64,000 bases of DNA from positions 744,001 through 808,000 of the forward strand of contig OY253668.1 in NCBI GenBank assembly GCA_958009085.1. The letters are read 5' to 3'. The position numbers were made by a program, and so were the translations under genes. How positions within the stretch are numbered: the stretch's first letter is position 1; every line of letters starts with the position of its first letter. Below are positions 8,431 to 54,060 of the stretch, piece by piece. The notes beneath the pieces were generated by a model. It saw nothing but the letters and a program-made list of their open reading frames with translations. It was not told the origin of the DNA and did no database searches. This stretch comes from Protoeuglena noctilucae. Its lineage: Eukaryota.

Positions 8431-9095
8431 GCTGGGGGGGCAGTAACAACACACTCCCACGTGTTGTTACTGCTCGCCGTGGCGCCCTCTGACACGAGAG
8501 CTACCCCTCCTGCTCCACCGGGGGATGATGCAAGGGGTAAGAGATGCATGTGTGCGATGCGGGGAGCGCGGTCGGTGCGGTCGGCGACTCGTGGCCGGTC
8601 ACGTCAGCTTAAAAGTCACAACGGCCCCGCAGCTGCTTTATCGCAGTCGCGGAACCAAGCCGCCTCTCAAACGTACCTCCATGTTGACGACAGCGATCCC
8701 GTCTTGGGCCGCCAGCCCAGGGCCGGCGGAAACCATTTGCGGCTCGTCGACTGGGCAAGCGGGCCCGGAAGAAACTGCAGTGCGGCGAAAATTCGAGTGA
8801 TTGAGTGCAGAGATTCTGCCCTGCACCCCCATGTCGTTTTCTTCCCTTCAGGCTGCCCCACCCGTCTGACTTTGTATGCCCTTGAAGCCCCGCCGGGCTA
8901 TCTAAGCCAATTTAGGGGCTAGATCAGCTCCATTTTTGCTACTTCAACCCCCCCCCCCCCCCCCCCCAGTGTGCATCCGCGCCTACGCCTCGCGGTCAGG
9001 TGGCTGGCCCAGCCATGCACATCCACACGAGACGTGCTCCCAACATGAGGCGGGCAAAGGCTTGCATGCGCGTCGCATGCCCCTACCCTCAGCCC

Positions 9096-11652
9096 TCAGA
9101 ACAGCTTGGCCCAGTGCATGAAGGCCACGATGCCGGTGAAGATGATCCCGCACCCGATGACGGACGTCCACGTGACGACGAGGAAGTCCTGGTAGGACGA
9201 CTGGTGCGTGTTGTTGAGGTTCATGCCGAAGATGCTGCAGATGCACGAGACGATGGCCAGGCAGAAGGTCGCAGAGGTGAGGACGATTTGCATGATCTGC
9301 GGGCGACGCGGGGTGGACGATGACGAGCCTGGCTTGTGATGTTGCCGCAGCCCTTGCTGCAAGCCAAGGTATGCATACTCAAACGCAGAGATGCCGTGAA
9401 CAACATGGCCATTCCCCATCTCCGCCGCACCAGCAGCTGGTTGCGCTGGCTGTCCTGCTTGATGTTGACGAAGTCCTCCGTGTCGTCGATGTACTCCGCC
9501 AGGGTCGCGAGCTTGTTGTACATCACGTCGACCTGCGAGCGAGGTCTCTCGTCTAGCCATCCTCGTCTGCAGACTCGCAGACCAGAAGGCCAGCGTGACA
9601 CCGACAGCTGTCGCAAGCGTATGGTAACTGCTTGCTTGCCTGCATAAAGTAGGCCTCCAGGAGCATCTCCACCTCGTCCACGATGCCCTCCTCCACCTCG
9701 CTCTCGATCGAGCTCTTGCTGCGCGTGCTCTCGGACCGCCCGTCCGCCGACAGAACCTGGGAGTGGCGCGCCAGTGTGGCCGTGCGTCCCCGGCCGCGCG
9801 GGGTCGGCGGGGCGCCGGGGGACCCACCCGGCGGAGCGTGCTCTGCGCGTGAGAATAGAGGGGAACCTCGTTGTCACGGAGCGGTCCCTGTCGACGGCGC
9901 TATGGCGGATCGGGTTGACGGGTCGACGGCAGCGAAGCAGGAAACGATGAACAGCATACCAGTCAACTGAAGCCGCCCCGTTCTCACCCGTCGGCCCCTC
10001 CTCGTCGTCGCCGGCCGCCGTCGACCGCGCCTGCTCCTCGAGCATCTCGTGCACGCGCTCGTCGATCACGGCCTTGCTCGACAGGTACATGTCGAGCATG
10101 TCGTCGTCGTCGTTCAGGTACCGCTCCAGGATCTCCCGGATGCTCTCCACCCGCGCCTTCGCAACAGAGAGAGTTGCCAAAAGGTGGCGGTGATTGGCGA
10201 AGCCTGCATCCAGCCAGCGCCAGCGGTGATGTGCATGTGTGTGCATGACCCCCGCACCTTCAGTCGGGTCATGCGGCTCTTGATCCGCCGCACGCGCTCC
10301 AGGTTGACGATCGTCACGTGGTGCGACAGGGCGTCCAGGGCCGGGTGCGCTGAGGCCTCCAGGTCGGCCATGAGGCCCTCCAGGTGCTTCGCGACCGCCT
10401 CCAGCGCCACCTCCAGGCACCGCAGCTCGAAAGGGGCCGGGTCCTGCGAGAGAAGGGATGCACACGCCTCACGCTATGCACGCACAGAGCAAGCGCCTGC
10501 GTCCGCACGCCGTCGATGGCTCTCTGCCGCCCCCGGCACCGCCCCTCGCCTGCGTCTTGTCGTCCGCCGCAGCTGCCAGGTGTGCGGCGCGGAGTTTCCG
10601 CTCGAGCTGCTCCACGAACGGCACGACGTCAACGTTGCCGAAGTCGAGCACGAACACCTCGTCGAGGCCGATGATGCACTTAATCTGCTCGAGGTTAACG
10701 ACCATGGCGCGCTCGCGGCACAGGATGGCGCTGGCGTAAGACCCCGAGAGCTTGGGGTCCAACACGCGGAGGTCCCGCAGGGGGACGCCCATGCGCCGGG
10801 ACGTGGCCAGCTTGTTCATCTGCACCGTGACCATGTTGCCCGTGCGGTCGATGCACAGCCACGTCTGCACGCCCCCGTGGCCCCGGGCGTACGTGTCGAG
10901 CTGCGAGCAGAGGACGGGCCGGGCCGTGACGGTGCAATGGGGCAGCCATCGCGCCAAACCCGGCGAGTCGAGATCATCACATCCCAGAAAGTGACTGAAC
11001 GAAAGTGTCACACGGCCCAAAAGCGTCCTGGATGGCAGGGGACGGATGCCACACATGCGCATGCACGCGCCCCATGCTCTCACACCTTGGTCCTCTTCTC
11101 CCGAGGCTGCGCTCGAGGTCCGGTGCCCTGCGGCCCGGCCAAATTGGGGAACGAGACGCTCTTCCGGCGCAAAATCACGTCGTCCCCGTCGTGCCTGCGG
11201 AGAGGCGTGGCCCAAGCCATCTCGAGGCGCAACCATACGCCTTGCGAAGCCGTGTCGTTGTTACACCGGTAACTTATTCGGAAGATCAGCGCCGGAAAGC
11301 GGGGAATCGCCACGAAAGCGCGACGCTGAGGCGCACGCGGGGCGGCAGCCCACCCGTCATGGCCGCCGCCGTCCGCTCCGCCCGCGTGCTGCCCGCCAGC
11401 GTTCCCTACGCTCACGACCTCGACGTAATGCTCCTCGCCATGCTCTTCCCCGTGGTCGTGGTCGTGGTGGAAAGAGCTGCCACCGTGGTGACTGAGGCCC
11501 ATGACATCAGCGGCGCCCGAGGCCACGGAGGGCCCCTGATCTCCAAAGTACCGCTCAAGGGGCGTTTGCTGAGGGAGCTCCAGGCTCTGACCCCGAGGGG
11601 AGCGCCCGGCCGGGGACGAGCCCCCGGCATGCCGGGATCCGCTCGACGCCAT
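9096..11652 (-). CDS. MRS2: MRS2/CorA-family Mg2+ transporter, copy 1
   Basis: [79 protein letters not shown] motif (SIFGMNL). Confidence 0.93.
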
Positions 11653-12310
11653 CGCAGCGGGTCTGCAGGACGCAGCCGTAGGGAGCCTGACTCGTTCATA
11701 TGTCCTTCCGAACCTCATAGGCGGCCACGTAGTAACACCAGGAGCCTCACCTCACTCACGCCGGCCCGCTGCGCGATCCCAGGGACGGCCCGGTCACCCC
11801 ATCAGCGCTGCGGGCGCGTCAAAGGCAGGAGAGGCGTAATCTCCAAACCTGGACCAGCCGAGGTCATGCAGACGGAGAAATAGTCGCGAATGCGCCCCGC
11901 GGCCCCCGCAACAAGATGCGCCACGCCAACCCCCCCACCCACGCACCGAAAACAACAAGCCCTGCCCCCCACGCGCCACGTCGAAGAGAGCCGCAACAGG
12001 AGGACTTCGCGGGCGCCGTCTCGGCGTGCGCTCGCGCCTGCAGCGTGCGCTCGCGCCTGCAGCCCCTCGAAGAAGACGACTACATCGAGGTGCGCCCTCG
12101 ATCGCAAGCGACAGTCTCACGTTGTTGTATGTGAACCATCGCCGCGACTGGCGCGGTCCCTTATGCCCGGTGTGAGCCGCCACCCAACGCCAGCAGGCAG
12201 GTGTCAGGGGAACATCACAGGATTTCGAGCGTTTTTCAGAACAATCTCTTTGTGCGACCCATCAACTCTCCAAGGACGGCATCCGCGCATTCATCTCTTC
12301 GAAAAGACCA

Positions 12311-14481
12311 TTACATGAACTTCAGCCAGCGCATGTAGGCGACGGAGCCGAAGAAAAAGAGCACGGCCCCGAGCGAGCAGATGATAGTGACCAGTAAGAA
12401 GTCACGGCTGCTGTCTTCCCTTTTGCTCGTCAGGTTCATGCCGAAGATGGACGCTACGGCCGTGACGAGCGCCACGCCGAACGCCCCGCTTGTCAAGAAG
12501 AACTCCAGGATCTGTGAGGACCAGCGGCACTGGCTTTACGGCATGGAATGATCGCATAGCACAACAAGACGGCTGCCTGCTCCAACAGCGCCCTCCGCTG
12601 CACCCTGCGCTGCATCGGCACCCACCAGGAGCTTGTTGCGCTGGCTGTCCTGCTTGATGTTGACGAAGTCCTCCGTGTCGTCGATATACTCTGCCAAAGT
12701 CGTCAGCTTGTTGTACATCACGTCGACCTGCGGCAGAGGCAGCGGGTCGCAGTGCACCCACCGGTTCGCTTTTGCGTCGGCAATGCCACAGGGTGAGCGC
12801 TGGCCCTCGTCACCGGCATGAAGTAGGCCTCCAGGAGCATCTCCACCTCGTCCACGATGCCCTCCTCCACCTCGCTCTCGATCGAGCTCTTGCTGCGCGT
12901 GCTCTCGGACCGCGCATCCCCGGCAGGCAGGGGCAGCACTTGCGGGCTGGCGCCGAGCTGCACCGGCACCCCCATGGCCACATCCCCTGCGGAGCCAGAC
13001 GAGCTCAGAGGCATGTCGTTAAACAGCGGTAGCTTGGCGAGGCGTTCAGCAGGCAGGGCAGCTCCTGACGCCGCATGTCACCTCCCACGTCCGGGGCGGT
13101 CTGCGAGGGCTGCGACTCGTCCGACCGCGCCTGCTCCTCGAGCATCTCGTGCACGCGCTCGTCGATCACGGCCTTGCTCGACAGGTACATGTCGAGCATG
13201 TCGTCGTCGTCGTTCAGGTACCGCTCCAGGACCTCTTTCACGTCCTCCACCCGCCCCTGCAGACACACACGACGGGAACGACGCGCTCAAGGCAGGGATC
13301 TCGATGACGAGGCTGCTCAAAGTCGATGCTCGGGCAACAGCGCACCTTGAGACGCTTCATCCGGCTCTTGATGCGCCGCACGCGCTCCAGGTTGACGATC
13401 GTGACACGCTGCGACAGGGCGTCCAGCGCTGGGTGTGCCGAGGCCTCCAAGTCGGCCATCTGCCCCTCCAGGTGCTTCACGACCGCCTCCAGCGCCACCT
13501 CCAGACACCGCAGCTCAAACGGCACCCTGTCCTGCGAGGCTCGACATGCACGGCGCCGTCTTGCTCGCATGCTGCCGCTGCACGTGCAAGCGCTGCGAGT
13601 GCATCTGTTGCAACGACGCCCGACGCTCACCTTGGTCGTCCTGCCCGACTTGGCCATCCGATGCGCCTTCCCCAGGCGGACCTCGAGCTCCTCCACAAGC
13701 GCCGCCACGCCCTCGTCGTGGAAGTCGAGCACGAACACTTCGTCGAGGCCGATGATGCACTTGACGTGCTCGAGGTTGACGACCATGGCGCGCTGGCGGC
13801 ACAGGATGGCGCTGGCGAAGGCGCTGGGGGTGTGGGGCTCGAGCGCCCGGAGGTCCCGCAGCGGCACGGCCATGCGGCGCGAGGCCGCCAGCTTGTTCAT
13901 CTGGACCATCACCGAGTTGCCCTCCCGATCGATGCGGAGCCACGTGCGCACCCCGCCCTGATTGCGAACGTGCGCGTCCAGCTGCGGACGCACGAGGCGG
14001 GAACAATTCGTTCAGTGTCACCAGAGACAAGCGCCAGGCGGCCCAACGCGCCGAAGACGTCGCGTGTGCTCGCACCTTGGGGCGATGCTTCCGGGCCAAT
14101 TCGCCGTTGTCGCGGTGCCGCACGGGTGCAGCCACAGCCACGGCCACCACGTCCGGCGCCGACTCGACTTTGCGCGGGCTTCCCACCGCCCTGCGAGCCA
14201 CTCGTTGGCGGGTGGGCACCTCAGCATTGGCAAGTCCAAGCAGCACAGGGGTTGAGCAACACAGTGGGCGATGTGCGCGTGGCGGCTGCCCCTCACCCTT
14301 GCAGGAGGACGTCGGTGGTCGAGACCTCAGGCACCTCCCTCTCCGGGTGCGCCTCGCCCGTCTCTTCTAAGACCTCCGCCGCATGGCCCTCGAGCGGCGC
14401 CTCCAGGTACCGCTCCATCGGCGTGAGGTGGACCCACTCATCGGACGGGGCTCCCGGCCCCGAATGCTCGGTGCCAGACAT
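12311..14481 (-). CDS. MRS2: MRS2/CorA-family Mg2+ transporter, copy 2 (tandem paralog)
   Basis: Same motifs and similar intron positions as copy 1; SIFGMNL; N-terminal TP(M/L)ERY motif shared with copy 1 supports the ATG at 14481. Confidence 0.92.
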
Positions 14482-14514
14482 CGCGGAGCGGGCGGCCTCA
14501 GGGCCTCCGCGATG

Positions 14515-15280
14515 TCATGCGGTCACGTTCTGAATCTCCTGGACGGCGGCGGCGAGCGACGCCTGCGACGCGCAGATGGGGCTACGCGAGGCCGCGGCAA
14601 CCGCAGCGCGCTTGACGTTCGCGAGCCGACCTGAGACGAACAGCGTGTTGTGCGCCAGCTGGCGGCCCGCGATGGACGTCAGCGTAGCCAGCGTGAGCCG
14701 CAGTCGGTCCGTGTCCGCCGTCGAGCACCGGAGGATGCTCAAACCCACGCCCGGGCCGTGCCACACGACCTGGAGGCAAAGGGGACCTCTCAGGGACGAG
14801 TTGCCGCGAGCCCTGGGGCAGACATGCTGATCGGGAAGCCAATCCATCATCGCCAGGAGCCGCGCATCGTCGCGCCGACCACCTTGAGGCTCTGTGCTGC
14901 TGCCGCGGCCCCGGCCTCGCCAAAGTTGGCCTCCAGCTGCGCGCGCAGCAGCTTTGCGTACTCTCCAGCGTCTGCGGGCAGTCATACGAAGCGAAGAGAG
15001 CCTCGAACACAGCGGTATGCGCAGAAGGCGCTGCGGCGGACCACGCAAGTGATCGCGCCCCCCACGCACGCCACTGGACAACCAAACGCCGCACAAGGGA
15101 CGGCGTGCTCCTCCAAGTCTTTACATTGACCCAACGCCATCAGCGTTCGATACTAGGGGCCTCCGAGGCGCGTGTACGCGCTGGCCTCGCTCCTGTGCCC
15201 TCACCTGGCTGCGGAGCTCCCGGCCCCCCGCTCTTCCACTCCGCTCCGATCAAGAGATACCTGTTCTTGAAACGGACCAT
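14515..15280 (-). CDS. POP5: RNase P/MRP subunit POP5 (Rpp14/Pop5 family); exons 15280-15205, 14971-14883, 14769-14515; 139 aa
   Basis: MVRFKNRYLL N-terminus; LEANFGEAGAAAAAQSLK|VVW; GLSILRC; TLFVSGRLANVK. Splice phases (1,0) add up. Missed as a unit by the ORF track. Confidence 0.85.
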
Positions 15281-15705
15281 GCAACGCGCCGGATTCCAAA
15301 CCCGGCAAGCCCTCTAGAGGGTGTAGAGGGCGTGAAGGCTGCCAAGATGTGGACAGGATGTGGCCCGTGCTCGCACCACGAGAGTGCCGTCCTCGATGCA
15401 GGCCCTTGACTATCAGCCTGGACCATCGCCCCTGTTGCTGGCGCCAGAGGGACGGCAGGCAGGTGTCAGAGCGAGCACGAGCACCTGAGTCCTGCTGTCA
15501 GCGAATCTCTGTGCACACCCACTAACGCAGTCGGGGCGCGGCGGGTGCTGAGGGCAGGTTCAAGGAGCTCGTTGCACAAAGAGCTCGCGTGGCAGGAACG
15601 ATGCGGCGCCACTCGACGGCCCGGGCAGAAAGCGAGGCGAGCCTCGCGCATGCAGCAGCCTCTCGTGCCCTGCCCACACAGCGCAGCGCTAGGCTCTCTC
15701 CCGCA

Positions 15706-17043
15706 TCACAGGGTGTCGTCCCCGATGGGCAGCTCCTGCAGGACCTTCTGCGCCACCTGCTGCTGCCCGATGTTGATGAAGAACTGCACAAGCCACTTGC
15801 GGGGCGCGATGTCCTTGTCCTCCCGCAGGCAGTCGAGGATCTCGGGTGTCAGGAAGGCCTGGATCGGGAGCGGCGCCCCCGACGTCTGGTCCATGAAGAG
15901 CTTGCGGGCCAGCTCGCTGTCGGACAGGCGGAGGTAGCATCGGATGATGTGCTTGAGGAGGCGGGGCGAGGGGGACTCGCGCAGGCCCATGACCACCATG
16001 CCCAGCACGTGCGCGATGAAGTGGATGCGCCCCGCCGTCTCGCACACGTGCGCCAGCCCCGCGTCGTCAAGGAGGATCTTCTGGATGATGAACGTCGCCA
16101 CCGTCTTGGACAGCTCCGTCCCGTACTCCATCGTGCAGAAGCACAGCGGGATGATGTCCGTGCTCAGGAGGAACTTGATCACCTGCGACGCAGCGAGCCA
16201 CAGGGACCGTACTCTTCGTCGCGACTGGTCCTGTTGCGCCACGCTGCCCCCCCCCCCCCCCCCCCCGCGCCCGCGGGGTTGCCAACGCGCAACGCGCCAG
16301 GTAGATACCAGGACGAACGATTCGAACCCCGCCGGCCTCGGGCTCACCTCCGAGTCGTCCACTTTAACCAGCGCCCCAATGACCCCCAGGGACGTGAGGC
16401 GGAGGTACTCGTAAGGCCGGCCCTTCTCCCGCGTGTTGAGGAACGGGTAGAGGAATATGGGGACCTGGGCCTTGAGGAACAGGTTCCGCGTCTCCATGTG
16501 CGAGGCCACGCACTGCAGGAGCGCCAGCGCGTTGCAGACGCGGTTGGAGCACGGGTGCGTCAGCACGGCTGGAGGCGTCAGTTTCGGGTACACGGAGACG
16601 ATCTCGAGCAGCAGCGCCGAGATCGTCCCGAAGCTGTGCCACAGGTAGACGGCCAAGTCTGCGGAGGCCGAGGGAGGGCGAAACTCGCGCCGGCGGCCTG
16701 GCCACGGACTCCCGCGCCGGGTCCTGATGGATCCTCTGTAGAAGAGCGCGGAACGCGTCGAGAGTCACCGGGGAACTGCTCCCGCTTCTTGGACAGCTCC
16801 AGGAGCGCGGTCTCGCGCATCGCTGGGTTATTCAAATCGACCACGAGCTGCTCGATGTTCGCGGCGTTGGCCATCGCGCCTCTGCGGATGAGACGGAGGT
16901 CAGCGCGATGACCGGCAGGAAAATCGCCGGCTCGCCCGCCCCCCAGGCCGCACTTTCGACCGGGGCTCCATCACGCACCTGGACTCGGCCTGCATCCCTC
17001 CTCCGGACCCGGGCGGCCGTTGTTGTGCATTCAGGTTATTCAT
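15706..17043 (-). CDS. CNOT9: CCR4-NOT subunit CNOT9/RCD1/CAF40
   Basis: [83 protein letters not shown] short first exon from ATG 17043 splices in frame. Confidence 0.95.
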
Positions 17044-17530
17044 GGCAGCCCCTCGCTTCGAGACGGGCTGCCTGGCCATGCCCCCGGCCGGCTCCACGCA
17101 GGTAGCACTGTGCCGCTCGACCCCGAGCAGGAGATGAGGGGCTGGACGCTCAGTGCAGAGCACCAGGTACCACGAGCGTTCCTCAGCGACACCACCGTGG
17201 CGCGAAAAGACCTGGAGCGCGCCCGCAGCTCCGTATCCGAAGCGAGGGAACTGCACGTCGCGGGTGTCAAGGGATTGCGCTCGCGTGGCGATGAACAGCA
17301 CGAGATGTTGGCGGAGAGAGTCGCGTGGGACTTGGTTGCGAACGGCACCGGCTCTGCTCGGTTTCCCCGCTGTTTCTGACACTTAAGGGAGGGCGCTTTC
17401 TTGGGCACGCCGTCGATGTAAACATCGACGAGACAGGATTGCCAGCGTGACAACCGATCCGATCGTCGACTTCCAGGGCTGACGCTTTTGTCCGACCGAC
17501 CGCCCACCGTCCATATCCTCGCTCCGATCC

Positions 17531-18855
17531 ATGGCATTGCGAGCTTTCCGAACACCATCGCTCGCGGGGTCCCTTCGCCGTGTCGGTTGCAGGCCCAGGG
17601 TGGTCTCGGCGATGGGGACGAAGGGCCAGCTCCTCGCGCTCGATTTCGACGGCGTCCTGTGCGATTCGTGTGGGGAGAGCAGGTGACATGACCCTTATCG
17701 TCACCCATTTATCGATGGAGAATAGTTCCAGATCAAGGCGTCGCCTCAGCGGCGGGTGCGGGCCTGATGGGGACCGTCGCATCGCCGCAGCCTGTCGGCC
17801 TGGAAGGCGGCGTCCAAGCTCTGGCCTGAGATCTTCACCACTGAAGATGCGAAGGAGAAGCGCGACGAGGTCATAGGTGAGCCGATGGAGATGTGTTCGG
17901 GAGGCAGAGGGCAGTGCGGTCCTGCCACGCCACCCCAAGCTGAGAGCAACTGCGCTGCAGAGGCCATGCGGATTGTTCGGCCGGTGGTCGAGACCGGGTA
18001 CGAGAACATCGTCCAGGTCCGGCTCCTCCTGGAGGGCACCCGGCCCGAGGACATGCTCGCGCACTGGCACGCCATGCTGCCGGAGGCCATGCAGCGCTTT
18101 GGTCAGGCGAGCAGGGGCCGGGCGCGTTCGCGTCGAGGTGCAAGTGGACACCGTGTGACCGCGGACAGCCTCCGCGACCTCAGGACCGGAAGACGCTCGT
18201 GGATTTGTTCGGGTCCACTCGCGACGAGTGGATCCAGACCGACCTGGAGGGGTGGCTAGCGCCCAACCGTTTCTACAAGGGCGTGGTCGACGCCGCTCGG
18301 GCCGCCGTGGAAGATCCGGAGCAGGAGGTGTACATCGTGACCACCAAACAGCAGCGCTTCACGTCCCAAGTAAGGGCGATGTGTGTGCGAAAGTGCTCTC
18401 TCACAGGGCAGCGAGCGAGGCTGATCTCCTGCATGGTCGTTTCGCGCAGTTGATGCGAGACATGGCCCAGCTGCCGTTCCCGGACGAGCGCATCCTGAGT
18501 CAGACGGAGAGCGGGCGGCCCAAGACGGAGCGGCTGATGGAGCTGGAGGCCGCGCATCCTGGTCTGGAGAACCACTTCGTCGAGGACAAGCTGTCCACCT
18601 TGGAGAAAGTCTGCCAGGCGAGACCTGGGACGCGCTGCGCTTTCAGACCTGGTGACCGCATCTACTTCAACGCACTGAGACTGGCGGGTGCCGTGTGCGC
18701 AGGTACCTGAGCTGAACCACTGGAAGCTCTACCTGGTCGACTGGGGCTACAACACGGAGCAGGAACGGGCGCGGGCGAGGGAGAATGCGAGGATCACGGT
18801 CATCGGCGTGCGGGAGTTCGCAGACCTCTGTCGGCACCAGGCAGCCCGCGTTTGA
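17531..18855 (+). CDS. HAD-superfamily hydrolase with transit peptide (plant/cyanobacterial type)
   Basis: LALDFDGVLCDSCGES (HAD motif I), MRIVRPVVETGYEN, VYIVTTKQ, HFVEDKLSTL, LYLVDWGYNT. Confidence 0.88.
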
Positions 18856-32992: not shown

Positions 32993-33008
32993 TTTTTCGA
33001 AGTGAATT

Positions 33009-34006
33009 ATGCTCTTTTCCTCCTGGAACCAGGTGGTTCAGTTTGCCACTGGCCTCTCCGCTATAGCTCCCTCCGCTGTCTCCACTGAAGCCGTGCGCGC
33101 CCTTCTCACTACGCTGGGGATGCCGACCGCACTGGTCACTGTCCTCTACACTCTGTGTCCCGACGGGCCTGACCGGGTAGGCTGCGACGTTGCCATCAAG
33201 TGGCTCAACAGCATTCGCAAGAGTGTGGTAGACACCATGACCCACCCCCGGGCGACTAATGCCTCTTTCGTTTGCTTCGGCCCCTCCCTCCACTTCTCGG
33301 CAGATATCCTGAACCCCGGGGCTTTTTCCAGACGTGGCTCCGCTGCCTCATCCCCCCTCCCTCCCTGGACACGTTTACCAACCACCTGGTGCTCGTGCAG
33401 AGTGAGGGCCGCCAGGGCCGGGATTCCTTCTTGGCCGAAGTTTACACCGCTACCTCTTGCAACGGACACGGGGCCATGCGCCAAGCCCACTTGCCCGCCT
33501 TCTGCCCCTCCGGCTGCATCACAGCCCTCACTGCATCTCTGGCAAAGCCCTACGTCGTTTCCACCTTGCTTAGTGAACGCCAGACCCTTCGCTCGCTGTG
33601 CCGCCCCTACACTGGTAGCTTCGTGGCTGGGTGCTTCTCCTGCGACCTGTGCCTCGCCAAAAACGCTGCGGCTGCCACCGCTCACCAGGCTGGCCTGGAC
33701 TACGCTGCCACCCTGGACCTGCAAGCCAAAGATAACATCGCCAAGCTTTTCTCGCTAACTACTGGCGCTGCCTCTGACCCCCTGTCTGGCACCGTCAAAG
33801 GCCTGGCCATCGATGCCCGCAAGGTCCTTTTCTGCCCCAAAGCGTCCAAACCGCCCCCCTCTCTCCTTCTGGGCCTCTCGGGTGTTGCTAGTCACCTCCA
33901 CGACCACCACAGTGACCAGTGTGACAAGAACAAAGCGATCACCCTCAAGCAGTACACTAGGGGCTCTGTTTCCCTGTCCAACCTCATGCAAGTTTGGTTC
34001 CCGTGA
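33009..34006 (+). pseudogene. LINE ORF1, C-terminal half (one frameshift near 33320), Cys/His-rich
   Basis: MLFSSWNQVVQF...; after the shift, CNGH, CFSCDLC and CPK...HLHDHHSDQC; TGA at 34004-34006 overlaps the next ATG. Confidence 0.6.
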
Positions 34007-37000
34007 TGGTGACAACGCGTAATGCAGCAAAGCGCTTGCGCCTCCTACCCACCTCCCCAGTTGAAAACCACACCCCCCATGGGGGATCGGGTCCCCACTC
34101 AGGTCCCCCCCTGACATTGAGCCCCACAAATGGGCACAGGAATGGACCACCACCTAGGGCTGCAGCGCCCACGCGATCTTCCTTTGTCAGCTGCACCCCT
34201 CAACAGGGCACTTGTCCCCATTCCCCTCCACTCACCCGGCCTGGCCAACCTCACTGCCCTCACTCTCAACCTCAATGGTAACTTCCTCATGAAACAGGAG
34301 GCGCTGCTTGGCCTTATCCAGGCGCACCCCCACACATGGCTGGCTCCCCCCGCTTCCTTTGTCTTCCTCCAAGAGCTCAAAACTGAGCTGGATTAGCCCC
34401 CCGCCGCCTTTGCGTCCCTCGCGCGCCTCAGCCACCACGTGTGGCGCATGGGGCCCTCAGCCCATCGGGCTGGGGTGGCCATCCTCGTTTGCAACCAGCC
34501 TGGCTCCCACCTTCTCCACACCTGGACCGAACCTGACACTGCTCGCCTCACTGGCTTCGTGGCCCGCCTCGATGTCAAAGTAGCCAGCCGCCACTACACC
34601 CTCGTCAACGTGTACATGCCCCAAGACGCTGCTGACAAAGACTACGTCCTCTCCAGCCTCCTCCCTGACGGCCTCGCATCCCACGAACTCGGCCTGGTCC
34701 TCATGGGTGGGGACTGGAACATGGTCCTCGCAGCAGACATGGCTGCCTCGTCCTCGAACCACCAGGCCACCTCTGAGGTGCAGACGACCTTGCGAAAGAA
34801 GCTGCAAGCCCAAATCGAGGTTCTGGGCCTCATTGATGCCGGGGAGCAGGACCACAACAAGCCATTTGCAGTCCCCACGCGCCGGCACATGGCCCATGAC
34901 AAGTCGTGGAAGAACCGACTCGACCGTCTCTACGTTCCTCGGGACCAGCCCGCTGCCCTCCGCACGGAACACTCTGATGCCACCGCTCGCATCCACGCTG
35001 CCAACATTGCCCTCTCTGACCATGCCCCTGTTTACTTTCCTGCGCGACACCCCCCGCACCTCTCTCCGGCACCCCGCCAACATCCACCCGCACACGTCCT
35101 TCCTCGTGGAGGAGATTCGCCAGATGGTCGAGCCCCTGCAGGAAGCAGCTGTGTCCTCTGCCATCCTGGCCCATCCCGGGCCCGCCGCTCCCCCCAGCAC
35201 CGCCAAGCGCTGGGTCCAGCAGACAGCCAATGGCATCCAGGAGATCTCTCGACACTGGTATGCACACCAGTCCCAGTACATCAACCAGCGGAAGCAGCAG
35301 CTCCGGCTTCTGCGGGAGCAGTACTTTACAGCCGTGCGTGACGGCGAAGACGCCACTGCGTTCTGGTCCCAAATCCTCGATTACTACCAACATGCCCTAG
35401 CTAACCTCGACCGGCAGAACAAGACCCGGTCCTTTGATGTGCCGGCCTCAGCTCTCCCCCATGCCCTTCAGCCTGCCAGAGATAAGCCCTCCCCGCCAGC
35501 CACCAGCGTCAGAGATGGTGACGGCCAGCTCCTCTCCGAACCTGCTCTGGTCGAGGAGACCCTTGTGGACCACTTTAAGACGGTGGGGCAACCCACATCC
35601 CGCGATCCAGCTGCCCAGCAGCACGTGCTGGAGGTCCTCCAGAACTCTGGGCGCACGCTCACTGACCAGGAGCAGCAGAGCATTGATGCAACCATCACCG
35701 CGGAAGAGGTCCTTGCGGCCATCCACTCCTTCAAGCCTGAAAGCGCCACGGTGCCCATGGGCCTGCTGCCTGGCCTGTACCAGCGCTATGCCCACCTATA
35801 CGCCCCACTCCTCACTCTCCTTCTCAACACCATCCAGCAGACGGGTTTTATGCCCGCCTGCTTCCTTAACAGCACTGTCACTCTCATTCCTAAGCTCCCC
35901 AAAGCCACGGACTGCAAGCCCTCGGACTTCCGGCCCATCTCAGTCAATGATGCGGTCTACCGCGTCCTCGCTAAGGTGCTCAACACCCGGCTGCGCCCCG
36001 TCCTCCAACGCATCATCCCCCTCAGCCAGCAGGCCTTCATCAAGGGCCGATGCATCTCACGATGCGTGTACCTCACCCGCGCCACCCTGGAACTCTTCGA
36101 CCAGTCGGACGAGGGGTGCTTCATTATCTTCAATGACTTTGCCAATGCCTATGACACAGTCGACCGGCCCTTCCTCAGACGCATCCTCGAGACCTTGCGC
36201 TTTGGGGGAAACGTTCTGCACCTGGTTTGACATCATGCACACCCCCTCAGCCACCTACCAGCTCAAGCTGGGTCACGGTCTCAGCCGTGGTTACAGTGTC
36301 TCCACGGGCGTCCGCCAGGGCTGCCCGCTCGCCCCCTCCCTTTTCATCCTTGTGGCGCTCGCGCTCCACGAGCTGGTCGCCTCCAACCCCGACATCAAGG
36401 GCCTCCCGGTACCGGGACCCAACAAGCCCCCCCTCTACGCTTTCCGCACCGATAAACGGCTGGCCCAGGAGAGCCTCATCAGCCAATTTGCAGACGACAC
36501 CGAGTTCGTGCAGGCCACAGTGCAATCCATGCACAACTTATTCCAGGCTTTGGAAACCTTTCACCAGGCAACTGGTCTGCGCTCCAACCCCGCCAAGACG
36601 GGCATCCTTCCAGCTGGAAAGTGGAACACGGATCCAGCAGCGCTCCACCTGCACCTCACTGCTGCCCAGGCCCAGGGCCTCGACACGCTAATCTATGACC
36701 ATGCCCAGCAACGCTGGAAGCTCGATGGCTACTGGATTACCCCGCCTGGGGGAGAACCAGTAGCGCCAGTGAAATACCTGGGCACGCTCATGGGACCCAC
36801 AGGGATCGTCCCGACCGACTACTCATCCTTCGTGGCAAGCATCTATACACAACTCCTTCGCCTCCGGCAAACGATATCCCTCTGCTTCATCGGTGGAAAA
36901 CTGTCAAAACGTTTGTGCTGTCACGCCTCATCTACGCGACCACGCACTGCCCCATGGATTTTTCGCCAGGGAAGCCTGGTGCCCCGCTCCTTCGCTACAT

Positions 37001-38792
37001 CCAGCGCTACGTGCTCACGGAATCCCCCAAAACGCAACGGCTCCCGCCTGAGATTGACAGGAACGAGCTGTACCACCCCGTCAGCCGGGGCGGCCTTCAG
37101 GCTCAGCATGTGCCCTTTCACCAAGCGGCCCTCCGCTTCAAGATGATCCAGCTCCATGCGTCGGGGGCGGACCCCCTTTTCTCCAATGCCATCCACCAGC
37201 ACCTCGTCAGGTCCCTCAAGTATAAAGCGACGGTCAAATATGACGGACTGCGCTATGAGACGACGTTGTCCATCCCGGTGGGGCCCCACATCTGTGCTCT
37301 GACAGCCAAAGACTGGGCGGAGCTCACGCCCACCCCCCTCATTCGTGACCTTTTCAGCGCCACCTCGATGTTCCCCGCCACCCAGATGCTTCCTCCACCA
37401 CAGCCATACGCCAACCCACCCACCCTGAATGACCTGTGGATCCACCTGACCCCAATGCTCCGACCCCCGCTTCTCTTCAACCCACAAAACCCTCTCTCCT
37501 TCCCCGCCAACTTCGTGCACAGCCGCTCTACTGACCTTATCCACCAACGACTCCTCCTTGATCTGGGCCGCCATCATCCCAATCCTCGAACCTCTCCAGC
37601 GGGCCTTCCCGCTGGTCTCGTCGCTCATCATCCCTCGTGCCCACAATGGCCGTCTGGGACTCAAAGACCCTGACGACGTACTGACGACCCTCATGGTCCT
37701 GCCCTGGGCTCCTATATGGCCAGGCAGATTCGACTTGACTTCGTTTCTGCCCTCTCCGCCCACCTCAACATCAACAGCCCTGGCCGCCCTGGGCTCCCCG
37801 CCAACGCCTGGAATGACATCCGTGGTCCCACAGTCCTGTCTGTCTTCCCTCACGATTTCATCCACCGCATCTCTGGGTTCAGGGCCCAGGGCTGGTCCCA
37901 ATACTTCTCCATGCATGGCCACTCGCTTGGCCCCACGTACCACCCCCTGGCATCCATCACCCCCCAAGCCCATCACAGGGCCTTCGTGGTCGCAAAATAC
38001 TCGACGGACCAACCCTGCCAGCGTTTGTTGGAGGACAGCTCTCCCCATCTGGCACGTGCTGCGACTGCTGCCTTGGCACGCCCTCAGGCTAACCCCGCTC
38101 ACCTGGCCGCCGCCTCCACGGCCTGGCTCGCTGTCACCGACCGGTTGCCTACCTATTCTGACCTCCAGGGCAAGCCCTGCCCCCTCTGTCTCGAACTCCA
38201 CGGCACGTCCCTCCATGACCTGGCGGAGTCATGCCGCACGGCCCAGGTCGTGTGGCGCTCCGTCTTCCAATCCCTGCCTCCCCTGTCCTGGCAGAACCTG
38301 CGCCGCTGCCTTACCCAGCCACCCGTGGGGCCATCCGGCCTCTGCCCTGACCGTGGCACCCCCACTGCGTTCCTCTACCGCTTTGGCGCCACCCATGCCA
38401 GCTCCTCCCTGCTCAGGTCCCCCGCTTGGCGTCTCCTGTGGTCTGAAACTCTCCATGCCATCATCACCGCGCGCCGCTACTGGCGCACAGGCCATCCCCT
38501 CCCAGGTGCACCCCCCATGCTGCTCCTTGACCCTCCCGACGCCCCAGCGTGGGCACGGGCAGCTCGCATCGTCTCCTACGCCGGCCATAGGATCTCTTCT
38601 GCCCTGGCTTCCCACCACCGCCTCGCCTCCCCGGTTTCGGCCTCTCTGCTCCCAGACCTCCACGACCCTTCCCTCCCCCGCGGGGTCTTCTTCAAGGCCA
38701 TCTCTGTCACTCAAGACCTCTTCTCTTCTTTCTCACCTCTGCCTCCCCCGCAGCCGCCACCCCATCGCCGTGTTCCATTTGAGCCGGGATAG
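34006..38792 (+). pseudogene. LINE ORF2: apurinic-type endonuclease + reverse transcriptase + C-terminal Zn knuckle, disrupted
   Basis: EN: TLNLNG, FLQELK, GVAIL, LVNVYMP, GGDWN, RLDRLY, SDHAPV. RT: FRPISV, QQAFIKGR, DFANAYDTVD, GVRQGCPLAPSLF, QFADD, KYLG. CPLC-x8-H-x5-C. Broken by an in-frame TAG (34394) and several frameshifts. Confidence 0.92.
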
Positions 38793-38999
38793 GGGGGCTA
38801 GGGGGGGTTGTTTTGTTTTCCGAGTTTGCTAGCTTGGCGGCTACTACTGACCTTTGCGTCACCACTTCTTCCTGTCCACCTCTATCTCCTTGAGCTTTCT
38901 TGCAGGTAGGGTTTTTGAGGGTTCCCTCCCGGTCTATATCTTTGAATCCTCACTGGCAAAAAAAAAACACATTGCGGCCTACGCGACACTACTTGTGTC

Positions 39000-52953: not shown

Positions 52954-54060
52954 ATGAAAGCGGGACCCGCCCTCGTGAAAGTTTCCATTTCCCAGCTCTT
53001 TCTCTGCAAACCCGTCGCGGACGCCGGGCGTGAGGCCACCTTCCGGCTCGGCGACGCGGAGTTCGAGCGCGTGTGGGTCCAGGTGAGGGACTGGGGGGGA
53101 CTGGAGGGTCTGAGGACCTCTTCAACTACTGGTGCGTGGAATCGAAACGTGCGCACCTTCGGAGAACGGTCCCGCGCTCGTTTCCCGTCCGTGCCCCAAG
53201 TGGGGGGGCCTGCTCGCCCCCGCCCAGGCCGCACCTGGCCAACCTCGGCACTCACCGTGCTTATTTTCACCCGTGTTGTCTCGCTCCTTGCTCCGCGCGC
53301 CCGTTCACCGCCCCAGGAGAGCCCCGCGCCCTCAGCAGATGCAGCGCGTTTGAACGAGCCACCCTGCCAGTGGCGCGAAGTGCCCGGTGCGCGGAACTCG
53401 CGACCCGCGAGGTCCCAATTTCGCCCCTTGACTTTCCGAGGGGTAACTTGTCCCCTTTCTGCCGCTTCTTTCCTCAAGAGAGCTCTGACTTTTCCGGGGA
53501 AGCGTGCTCAGCACGCGGGGTCATTGCGCGCCCGAGCTGCCGCCCACCGTCCACCCCGACCGGTGCCTGTCGACCATGGCCATCGCTTGCGCTCCGTGCC
53601 ATGCCGCGTGCCTCTCTCGCTGCGCAGGGGCGTGTGACCGGTGCCTGCGGTGGGAGCCCGGGCGACAAGCGGTCGTTCATCGTCACGGTGGACGACGGGA
53701 CGGGCCTGGTTGAGGTAGACGTCGCTGGCGCGTACAAGGTGAGCGAATACTCGGCCCCCGCTCTGACGCAGCCACCCACGCTGCACGGGGCGCACGTGCC
53801 ACCCCGCCCTCGCGAGCTTCGGTGCCACGCCCCTGGCAACCCCCCTCCCCCAGGTCTGCCCCGACCTGCCCCTTCCCGTGGACGGCGGCCCCGTGGCGGT
53901 GGTGGGTCGCATCGTGGACAAGGGCGGGCGCCGTCGCATCCGCGCCCGCAAGTTTGCCCCTTGCTCCGAGGCTAGCCTGCGTGCCTGGCCGCTGCTCCTC
54001 CGAGCGCTCCGCCCCGAGGGTGGTCCAACACCCGGGGACTCGTCCGTGCCGCGCTCGTGA
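52954..54060 (+). CDS. RMI2: RMI2-like OB-fold protein; exons 52954-53082, 53628-53738, 53854-54060
   Basis: ALVKVSISQL, FERVWVQ|GRV, TVDDGTGLVEV, VAVVGRI, IRARKF...W match the RMI2 pattern. Confidence 0.75.

Follow-up and report, generated by a model that had tools for sequence, protein, structure and literature searches.

A probable shared messenger RNA for POP5 and a magnesium transporter gene, with a predicted hairpin over the second start codon, in the alga Protoeuglena noctilucae

We analyzed a window of 64,000 nucleotides (nt) of Protoeuglena noctilucae (assembly GCA_958009085.1, contig OY253668.1, positions 744,001 to 808,000), in which a preliminary description had proposed that POP5, a small RNase P/MRP subunit gene, shares a messenger RNA with MRS2-2, one of two copies of a magnesium transporter gene. 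The gene order on the minus strand is RCD1, POP5, MRS2-2, MRS2-1 (positions are those of the window). Our main finding is that the POP5/MRS2-2 pair is real and probably co-transcribed; it adds to a known kind of green-algal locus, with an unusual predicted junction hairpin. Coordinates are collected in Table 1.

On sequence grounds the first open reading frame (ORF) is POP5, by its N-terminus and by its structure-database matches. The coding sequence (CDS) comprises three exons and 420 nt on the minus strand and encodes 139 amino acids (aa). The protein scores 55.5 bits against PF01900 (cut-off 23), its weak matches in the PDB are POP5 chains and archaeal homologues, and in an alignment its C-terminus coincides with where most orthologues end; the spliced protein is present in the protein database as P0002. 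POP5 has one clear locus in the genome; a second, weak POP5-like match (G000:C7:70785-71108, E 0.06) is possibly RPP14 or noise. As the genome contains an RNase MRP RNA above cut-off and PRORP, and a search for nuclear RNase P RNA gave no match (the control search was also silent), POP5 probably serves RNase MRP rather than RNase P.

MRS2-2 follows on the same strand, its ATG (14481) being separated from the POP5 stop codon by the 33 nt originally reported. Exon 3 matches PF22099 (37.3 bits), the named best matches of MRS2 are volvocine magnesium transporters, and the G+C content at third codon positions (GC3) is 0.91. The preliminary description had missed exon 2, which is 115 nt long. Introns 3-5 are RNA joints, introns 1-2 are implied by contig pieces, and introns 6-7 were placed from splice signals and from the paralogue. 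MRS2-2 (495 aa) and MRS2-1 (539 aa) share 307 identities, and their N-termini align, including the TP(L/M)ERY motif by which the MRS2-2 start had been supported.

Table 1. Positions of the genes and junction features in the 64,000-nt window
Feature	Position	Strand	Remarks
5' leader of the candidate shared transcript	15281..15371	-	at least 91 nt, without ATG; X1 contig end
POP5 exon 1	15205-15280	-	start codon with T at -3, G at +4; same as start of database protein P0002
POP5 exon 2	14883-14971	-	weak PF01900 match, E 0.054; fits depth bins
POP5 exon 3	14515-14769	-	TGA at 14517-14515; RNA contigs continuous into MRS2-2 exon 1
6-codon mini-ORF	14498..14518	-	AUG overlaps POP5 stop; C at -3 (weak)
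Inter-ORF spacer	14482..14514	-	33 nt, 11 sense codons, in frame with POP5 and MRS2-2
Perfect 12-bp inverted repeat, 5' arm	14505..14516	-	begins within POP5 stop codon
Perfect 12-bp inverted repeat, 3' arm	14477..14488	-	holds MRS2-2 AUG; predicted pairing probability ~1.0
MRS2-2	12311..14481	-	gene model; 8 exons, 495 aa, intact, GMN motif
MRS2-2 exons 1-4	14481-14297, 14190-14076, 13981-13631, 13531-13346	-	
MRS2-2 exons 5-8	13256-13082, 12986-12814, 12727-12626, 12511-12311	-	
MRS2-1	9096..12120	-	539 aa, ATG 11652; own ~240-nt leader, two leader introns
RCD1/CNOT9	15706..16874	-	upstream neighbour of POP5; separate RNA contig; control, 425-nt gap unbridged

Four metatranscriptome runs of one study contain about half of the region's sequence words; contigs were mapped from three of these runs (X1-X3) and from one other run (X13), the latter giving one short partial record only. 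In X1, a spliced contig of 1,371 nt (record 3) runs from the POP5 leader into MRS2-2. Its listed pieces are 13630-13981 and 14296-14767, the second of which comprises POP5 exon 3, the spacer and MRS2-2 exon 1 without a break. A model from 15371 to 13356, made of the leader, the three POP5 exons, the spacer and four MRS2-2 exons, is exactly 1,371 nt long and matched the depth in all six bins tested. A contig of X2 (record 8), which starts at 14641, likewise crosses the junction. As introns are skipped in these contigs, their source is RNA. The 5' contig ends lie at 15371 in X1 (deduced from record length and depth bins), at about 15389 in X2 and at about 15347 in X3. The database copy of spliced POP5 is carried by a 2,111-nt contig, which is known from its database entry only and may come from the same study. 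Its size suits a two-gene mRNA, as the summed CDSs and spacer amount to 1,941 nt, or 2,032 nt with the leader. The contig-size column of the database also follows mRNA size for the neighbours: 1,375 for RCD1 (contigs of 1,288-1,347 nt) and 1,972 for MRS2-1 (estimate 1,988 nt). Neither flanking same-strand gap is bridged: on one side the contigs of RCD1 stop at 15634, 15573 and 15553, and on the other MRS2-1 has a contig that begins, with a separate spliced leader, at about 12120. The proposal that POP5 and MRS2-2 are co-transcribed is thus supported by spliced contigs from X1 and X2, a type of evidence that can prove neither single molecules nor exclusivity. Separate transcription of the adjacent paralogue is supported by its spliced leader and by the unbridged gap above it.

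The start contexts are as first described: POP5 begins weakly, whereas MRS2-2 has G at -3. A purine occupies -3 in all 12 hand-called single-gene starts (the IDI, ferrochelatase and bestrophin-like starts were excluded as uncertain), and in 44 of 53 predicted starts, for which the gene model itself favours a purine; POP5 has T. Apart from its start codon, the POP5 CDS contains a single ATG, at nt 417, which overlaps the stop and opens the 6-codon mini-ORF, again in agreement with the preliminary description. The stretch 15400-15281 is free of ATG; the nearest one upstream, at 15426, is strong, and a transcript reaching back to it would carry a 58-codon ORF that overlaps the POP5 start. A scanning ribosome would therefore meet one weak extra AUG in the ~540 nt between the leader start and MRS2-2.

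The spacer and its borders form a perfect inverted repeat (Table 1). The predicted fold of the 43-nt junction has a free energy of -25.8 kcal/mol (z score -4.3), a stability equalled by none of 200 shuffles and by none of 1,497 GC-matched window segments; a wider 121-nt fold around the junction is unremarkable (z -0.57). Similar inverted repeats occur at three other places in 489 kb and about 0.0004 are expected per 60-nt zone, although the junction repeat was spotted post hoc, when attention was already on this site. Neutral template switching can perfect quasi-palindromes, and the hairpin may have been selected or may be a product of such switching. Its position over the MRS2-2 AUG hints, as far as a predicted structure can, at translational control of magnesium uptake. 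The possibility that the spacer is a relic of the MRS2-1 leader was rejected, the alignment being without meaning. The sole other such repeat in the window is a perfect 13-bp one with an 8-nt loop at 8440-8473, between MRS2-1 and the next gene.

Taken together, we propose, with a probability of roughly 0.65, that POP5 and MRS2-2 lie on a shared mRNA, a new case of the bicistronic loci known from green algae, and that it is translated by leaky scanning, a mechanism established for algal bicistrons (PMC11291117, PMC11892635; here and below, statements refer to the available parts of the papers cited). A single promoter upstream of POP5 would give rise to a spliced mRNA of ~2.1 kb, with POP5 first and MRS2-2 second. 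The RNase MRP subunit would come from ribosomes that take the weak POP5 AUG. The others, leaking past this AUG, would encounter just one more, the weak one overlapping the POP5 stop, and would then melt a hairpin of about -26 kcal/mol and initiate MRS2-2 at its AUG of better context, so that two separate proteins would result. The arrangement probably originated when a tandem, leaderless MRS2 copy landed right behind POP5.

Several observations weigh against this proposal. First, the depletion of ATGs, which is present and had been advanced as an argument for a bicistron, is weaker evidence than was implied. Among 116 POP5 matches examined, 88 are full-length homologues, and internal methionine is absent from 11 of these (from 15 within the first 138 residues); 12,896 of 20,000 synonymous recodings of POP5 are devoid of out-of-frame ATGs. 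The joint chance is ~0.11 with the POP5 family as background, or ~0.01 with the window's methionine rate instead, and at the former level we rejected depletion as strong evidence. An ATG-free POP5 CDS was also found in three of four related algal loci examined (L045, L044, L039), and at L045 inspection by eye revealed no close same-strand downstream gene. Second, no MRS2 match was detected by tblastn within up to 3 kb at any of 80 other metagenome POP5 loci, many of them redundant or short and none from a close relative; the pair looks lineage-specific from these comparisons. Third, published effects of a hairpin of about this strength over an AUG are contradictory: one of -30 kcal/mol holding the AUG caused no inhibition in cells and strong inhibition in lysate (PMC5784139). 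Fourth, short-read contigs merge overlapping transcripts and are not single molecules, X1-X3 belong to one study, and the junction is bridged in two of these three runs among the pieces listed. Finally, the X2 contig breaks at 14641, within POP5 exon 3, with a depth of 11.3 downstream and ~5.4 upstream, which counts against a single transcript because an internal start would give the same pattern.

This last pattern also speaks for overlapping or partly separate transcripts, MRS2-2 being made mainly from a start inside POP5 while POP5 mRNA either stops within MRS2-2 exon 1 or continues through it. The two-fold step in X2 would fit such an arrangement, as would the POP5 depth in X3 (~3.6 versus 4.3), and C. 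reinhardtii has as many partly polycistronic loci as exclusive ones (PMC7896298). The X1 contig, however, is one unbroken piece that leaves no spare depth for another contig in the six bins tested, and a single gene, MRS2-1, drops similarly in X2 from 3' to 5' (41.3 to 22.1). Consequently, 3' bias can explain the step, though weakly since the contig depth is flat. MRS2-2 intron 1 shows no contig depth, and from the POP5 stop to that of MRS2-2 there is no TGTAA, an absence that says little because RCD1 and MRS2-1 lack TGTAA too. On balance we regard overlapping transcripts as unlikely.

The geometry of the junction brings in a different way of reading the shared mRNA, in which MRS2-2 is coupled to the termination of POP5. 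A ribosome at the POP5 stop would cover the 5' arm, open the hairpin and re-initiate, either directly or via the overlapping AUG and its 6-codon ORF. That the 5' arm starts within the stop codon while the 3' arm contains the AUG, that the mini-ORF ends 16 nt before the MRS2-2 AUG, and that such repeats are so rare are all in keeping with this mechanism. It needs, however, neither an ATG-free POP5 CDS nor a weak POP5 start, and the palindrome might be neutral in origin. Moreover, reporters in A. protothecoides gave less ORF2 product when the ORF1 context was strengthened, the opposite of what re-initiation predicts (PMC11291117). We therefore consider coupling to termination improbable, more so than overlapping transcripts.

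Because POP5 and MRS2-2 share a reading frame and the POP5 stop is UGA followed by C, a context linked to read-through (PMC3159437), synthesis of a POP5-linker-MRS2 fusion protein had also to be considered; the spacer is free of in-frame stops and a stem follows. An in-frame arrangement has one chance in three of arising at random and is not enriched at algal bicistrons (PMC7896298), and no Rfam family, hence no SECIS (selenocysteine insertion sequence) family, was matched in 8600-17600. The published stems of programmed read-through begin 7-12 nt past the stop (PMC3159437), while that of POP5 begins inside it. With this mismatched stem geometry, and with both proteins having normal ends (the C-terminus of POP5 matching most orthologue ends and the N-terminus of MRS2-2 its paralogue), we rate read-through as very improbable.

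Equally far-fetched, in our judgment, is the idea that MRS2-2 sits in the POP5 3' untranslated region as a passenger with scarcely any translation, or that it is expressed via an alternative splice into the spacer. A strong hairpin hiding the AUG and a separately transcribed paralogue would suit a passenger, and the spacer does contain two AG dinucleotides. Yet the MRS2-2 ORF is intact over 495 codons, with the GC3 value and GMN motif already mentioned; both spacer AGs are GAG, as against CAG in 17 of 18 modelled acceptors (the other being AAG); and the X1 and X2 depth bins fit normal POP5 exon 3 only, though the list of RNA joints is nine short of complete.

How frequent are such pairs in the genome, which is assembled in 27 contigs (26.3 Mb, ~66% GC)? 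From two candidates in 64 kb, a high genome-wide frequency had been anticipated, which a scan of 400 kb did not bear out. Using a rough home-made gene finder that resolved one of the two known pairs of the window, we obtained 53 same-strand pairs with a median gap of ~560 nt; two of them, both doubtful, were at most 50 nt apart, and at most three were within 80 nt. The 33-nt gap is thus beyond chance, and tight pairs appear to make up a few percent of same-strand neighbours, not the density of the window. This agrees with the 87 and 173 loci counted in the literature. The pair at 80 nt has an ATG-free upstream ORF, the feature for which a scan had been suggested. Pfam named one of nine pieces from the four closest predicted pairs.

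Two other tight pairs with an ATG-free first ORF are found in the genome, which speaks for our reading of the POP5 locus. In the window, a 148-aa ORF of three exons (52954-54060, plus strand), with T at -3 and without internal ATG, is followed 14 nt later by the next ATG (54075); it looks OB-fold/RMI2-like by eye, without Pfam support. Elsewhere (L005, 2074-1471, minus strand; G000:C6), an ORF of 83 aa, ATG-free and with two hydrophobic segments, is separated by 12 nt from a following ORF of the LYR family, whose members are common in known algal bicistrons (PMC7896298). No hairpin was predicted at either junction (z +0.70 and +0.82). By eye, three of six LYR loci have a same-strand ORF within ~160 nt. 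Further candidates are LYR genes followed by other ORFs within ~100 nt (L088, ~1832-1931) and ~160 nt (L091, ~1870-2028), and an ATG-free ORF of 165 codons located 80 nt before a small ORF (L132, minus strand). EMC6 has no close same-strand partner in this genome; genome searches for REX1-S/Tfb5 and OST4 gave no match, from which their absence does not follow.

Turning to the neighbours, the MRS2-1 leader (11653-12120, minus strand) contains two minimal upstream ORFs (uORFs), an AUG-stop and an AUG-codon-stop, neither of them in the frame of the main ORF, so that translational control of the paralogue is possible, judging from its sequence. Among the RNA-supported splice sites of MRS2-1 there are two GC donors and one AAG acceptor (10549, 9639 and 10157, minus strand). 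The paralogues share near-identical DNA tracts of ~100 nt (~10030-10130 with 13130-13230, and 9640-9740 with 12820-12910), despite their diverged N-termini, and RNA contigs cross-map between the two; gene conversion or else strong constraint is suggested. For RCD1, the start may lie not at 16874 but at 16995, an ATG further upstream in an exon of its own (as in a 305-aa database protein). An RCD1 tree places the organism on a long branch and is uninformative as to its position, and the searches gave no close named relative; its green-algal affinity rests on the best matches of MRS2 and on genes recognized by eye, as were the genes with hand-called starts other than RCD1, POP5 and MRS2. Also by eye, a LINE-like element (long interspersed nuclear element) lies at ~33000-38970 on the plus strand, with endonuclease-like and reverse-transcriptase-like ORFs, several frame breaks and an A-rich 3' end.

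Green-algal bicistronic loci (Gallaher 2021, PMC7896298; Duenas 2025, PMC11892635; preprint PMC11291117) and the POP5/MRS2-2 locus have much in common: a short ORF1 and a larger ORF2, a short spacer and leader, one spliced transcript (probable in the present case), a weak ORF1 start and a stronger ORF2 start, and few AUGs before ORF2. Published medians are 357 and 291 nt for ORF1 and 183 and 40 nt between ORFs (PMC11892635); here ORF1 measures 420 nt, the spacer 33 nt and the leader at least 91 nt, the -3 nucleotides are T and G, and AUGs are depleted, which is weak as evidence. Conservation of the pair in other algae, true of only a subset of known loci, was not seen (0 of 80). Whereas the inter-ORF regions of green algae are described in the available part of the preprint as having no conserved motifs or structures (PMC11291117), a perfect predicted hairpin covers the ORF2 AUG of POP5/MRS2-2. 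A text search of the readable supplements of PMC7896298 and PMC11892635 found no POP5 or MRS2 locus, although entries under gene identifiers alone could escape it, and search listings of the literature on POP5 or MRS2 as bicistronic showed nothing on this pair.

Another likeness is with TRPM7. In its mRNA, the second uORF has an AUG with U at -3 and G at +4; ribosomes use this AUG more at high Mg2+, and at low Mg2+ they pass it by (PMC4227784). In both systems a magnesium channel or transporter ORF stands behind such an AUG, and an ORF upstream finishes shortly ahead of the main start; in TRPM7, however, the sensor is a short uORF without conserved peptide, whereas the algal AUG belongs to a conserved housekeeping protein. 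By analogy, one might imagine a magnesium homeostat, in which the POP5 AUG would capture more ribosomes, and the hairpin would be more stable, at high Mg2+, so that MRS2-2 would be made mainly at low Mg2+; the minimal uORFs of MRS2-1 would then be a parallel device. We hold this to be a doubtful extension, since U at -3 with G at +4 is equally the ordinary appearance of a weak ORF1 start.

It is an open question why unrelated proteins stay together on single mRNAs in algae. The locus offers a sharp test of it because ORF2 is a metal transporter with a separately transcribed neighbouring copy, ORF1 has a start context linked to Mg2+, and a predicted hairpin lies over the ORF2 start. If Mg2+ shifts the ratio of POP5 to MRS2-2, the bicistron would have a regulatory purpose, and a true homeostat would amount to a metal-sensing nuclear bicistron with an inter-ORF structure gating ORF2. 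If Mg2+ has no effect, a divergent alga still provides a lineage-specific pair that parallels human RPP14-HTD2. The latter is a bicistronic mRNA (PMC4705651) in which ORF1 likewise encodes a small subunit of the RNase P type, from the Rpp14/Pop5 family (PF01900), and ORF2 is metabolic and unrelated. The alga differs in having POP5 itself as ORF1, a Mg2+ transporter as ORF2 and a pair that looks lineage-specific; we therefore view the two arrangements as independent parallels rather than as homologous.

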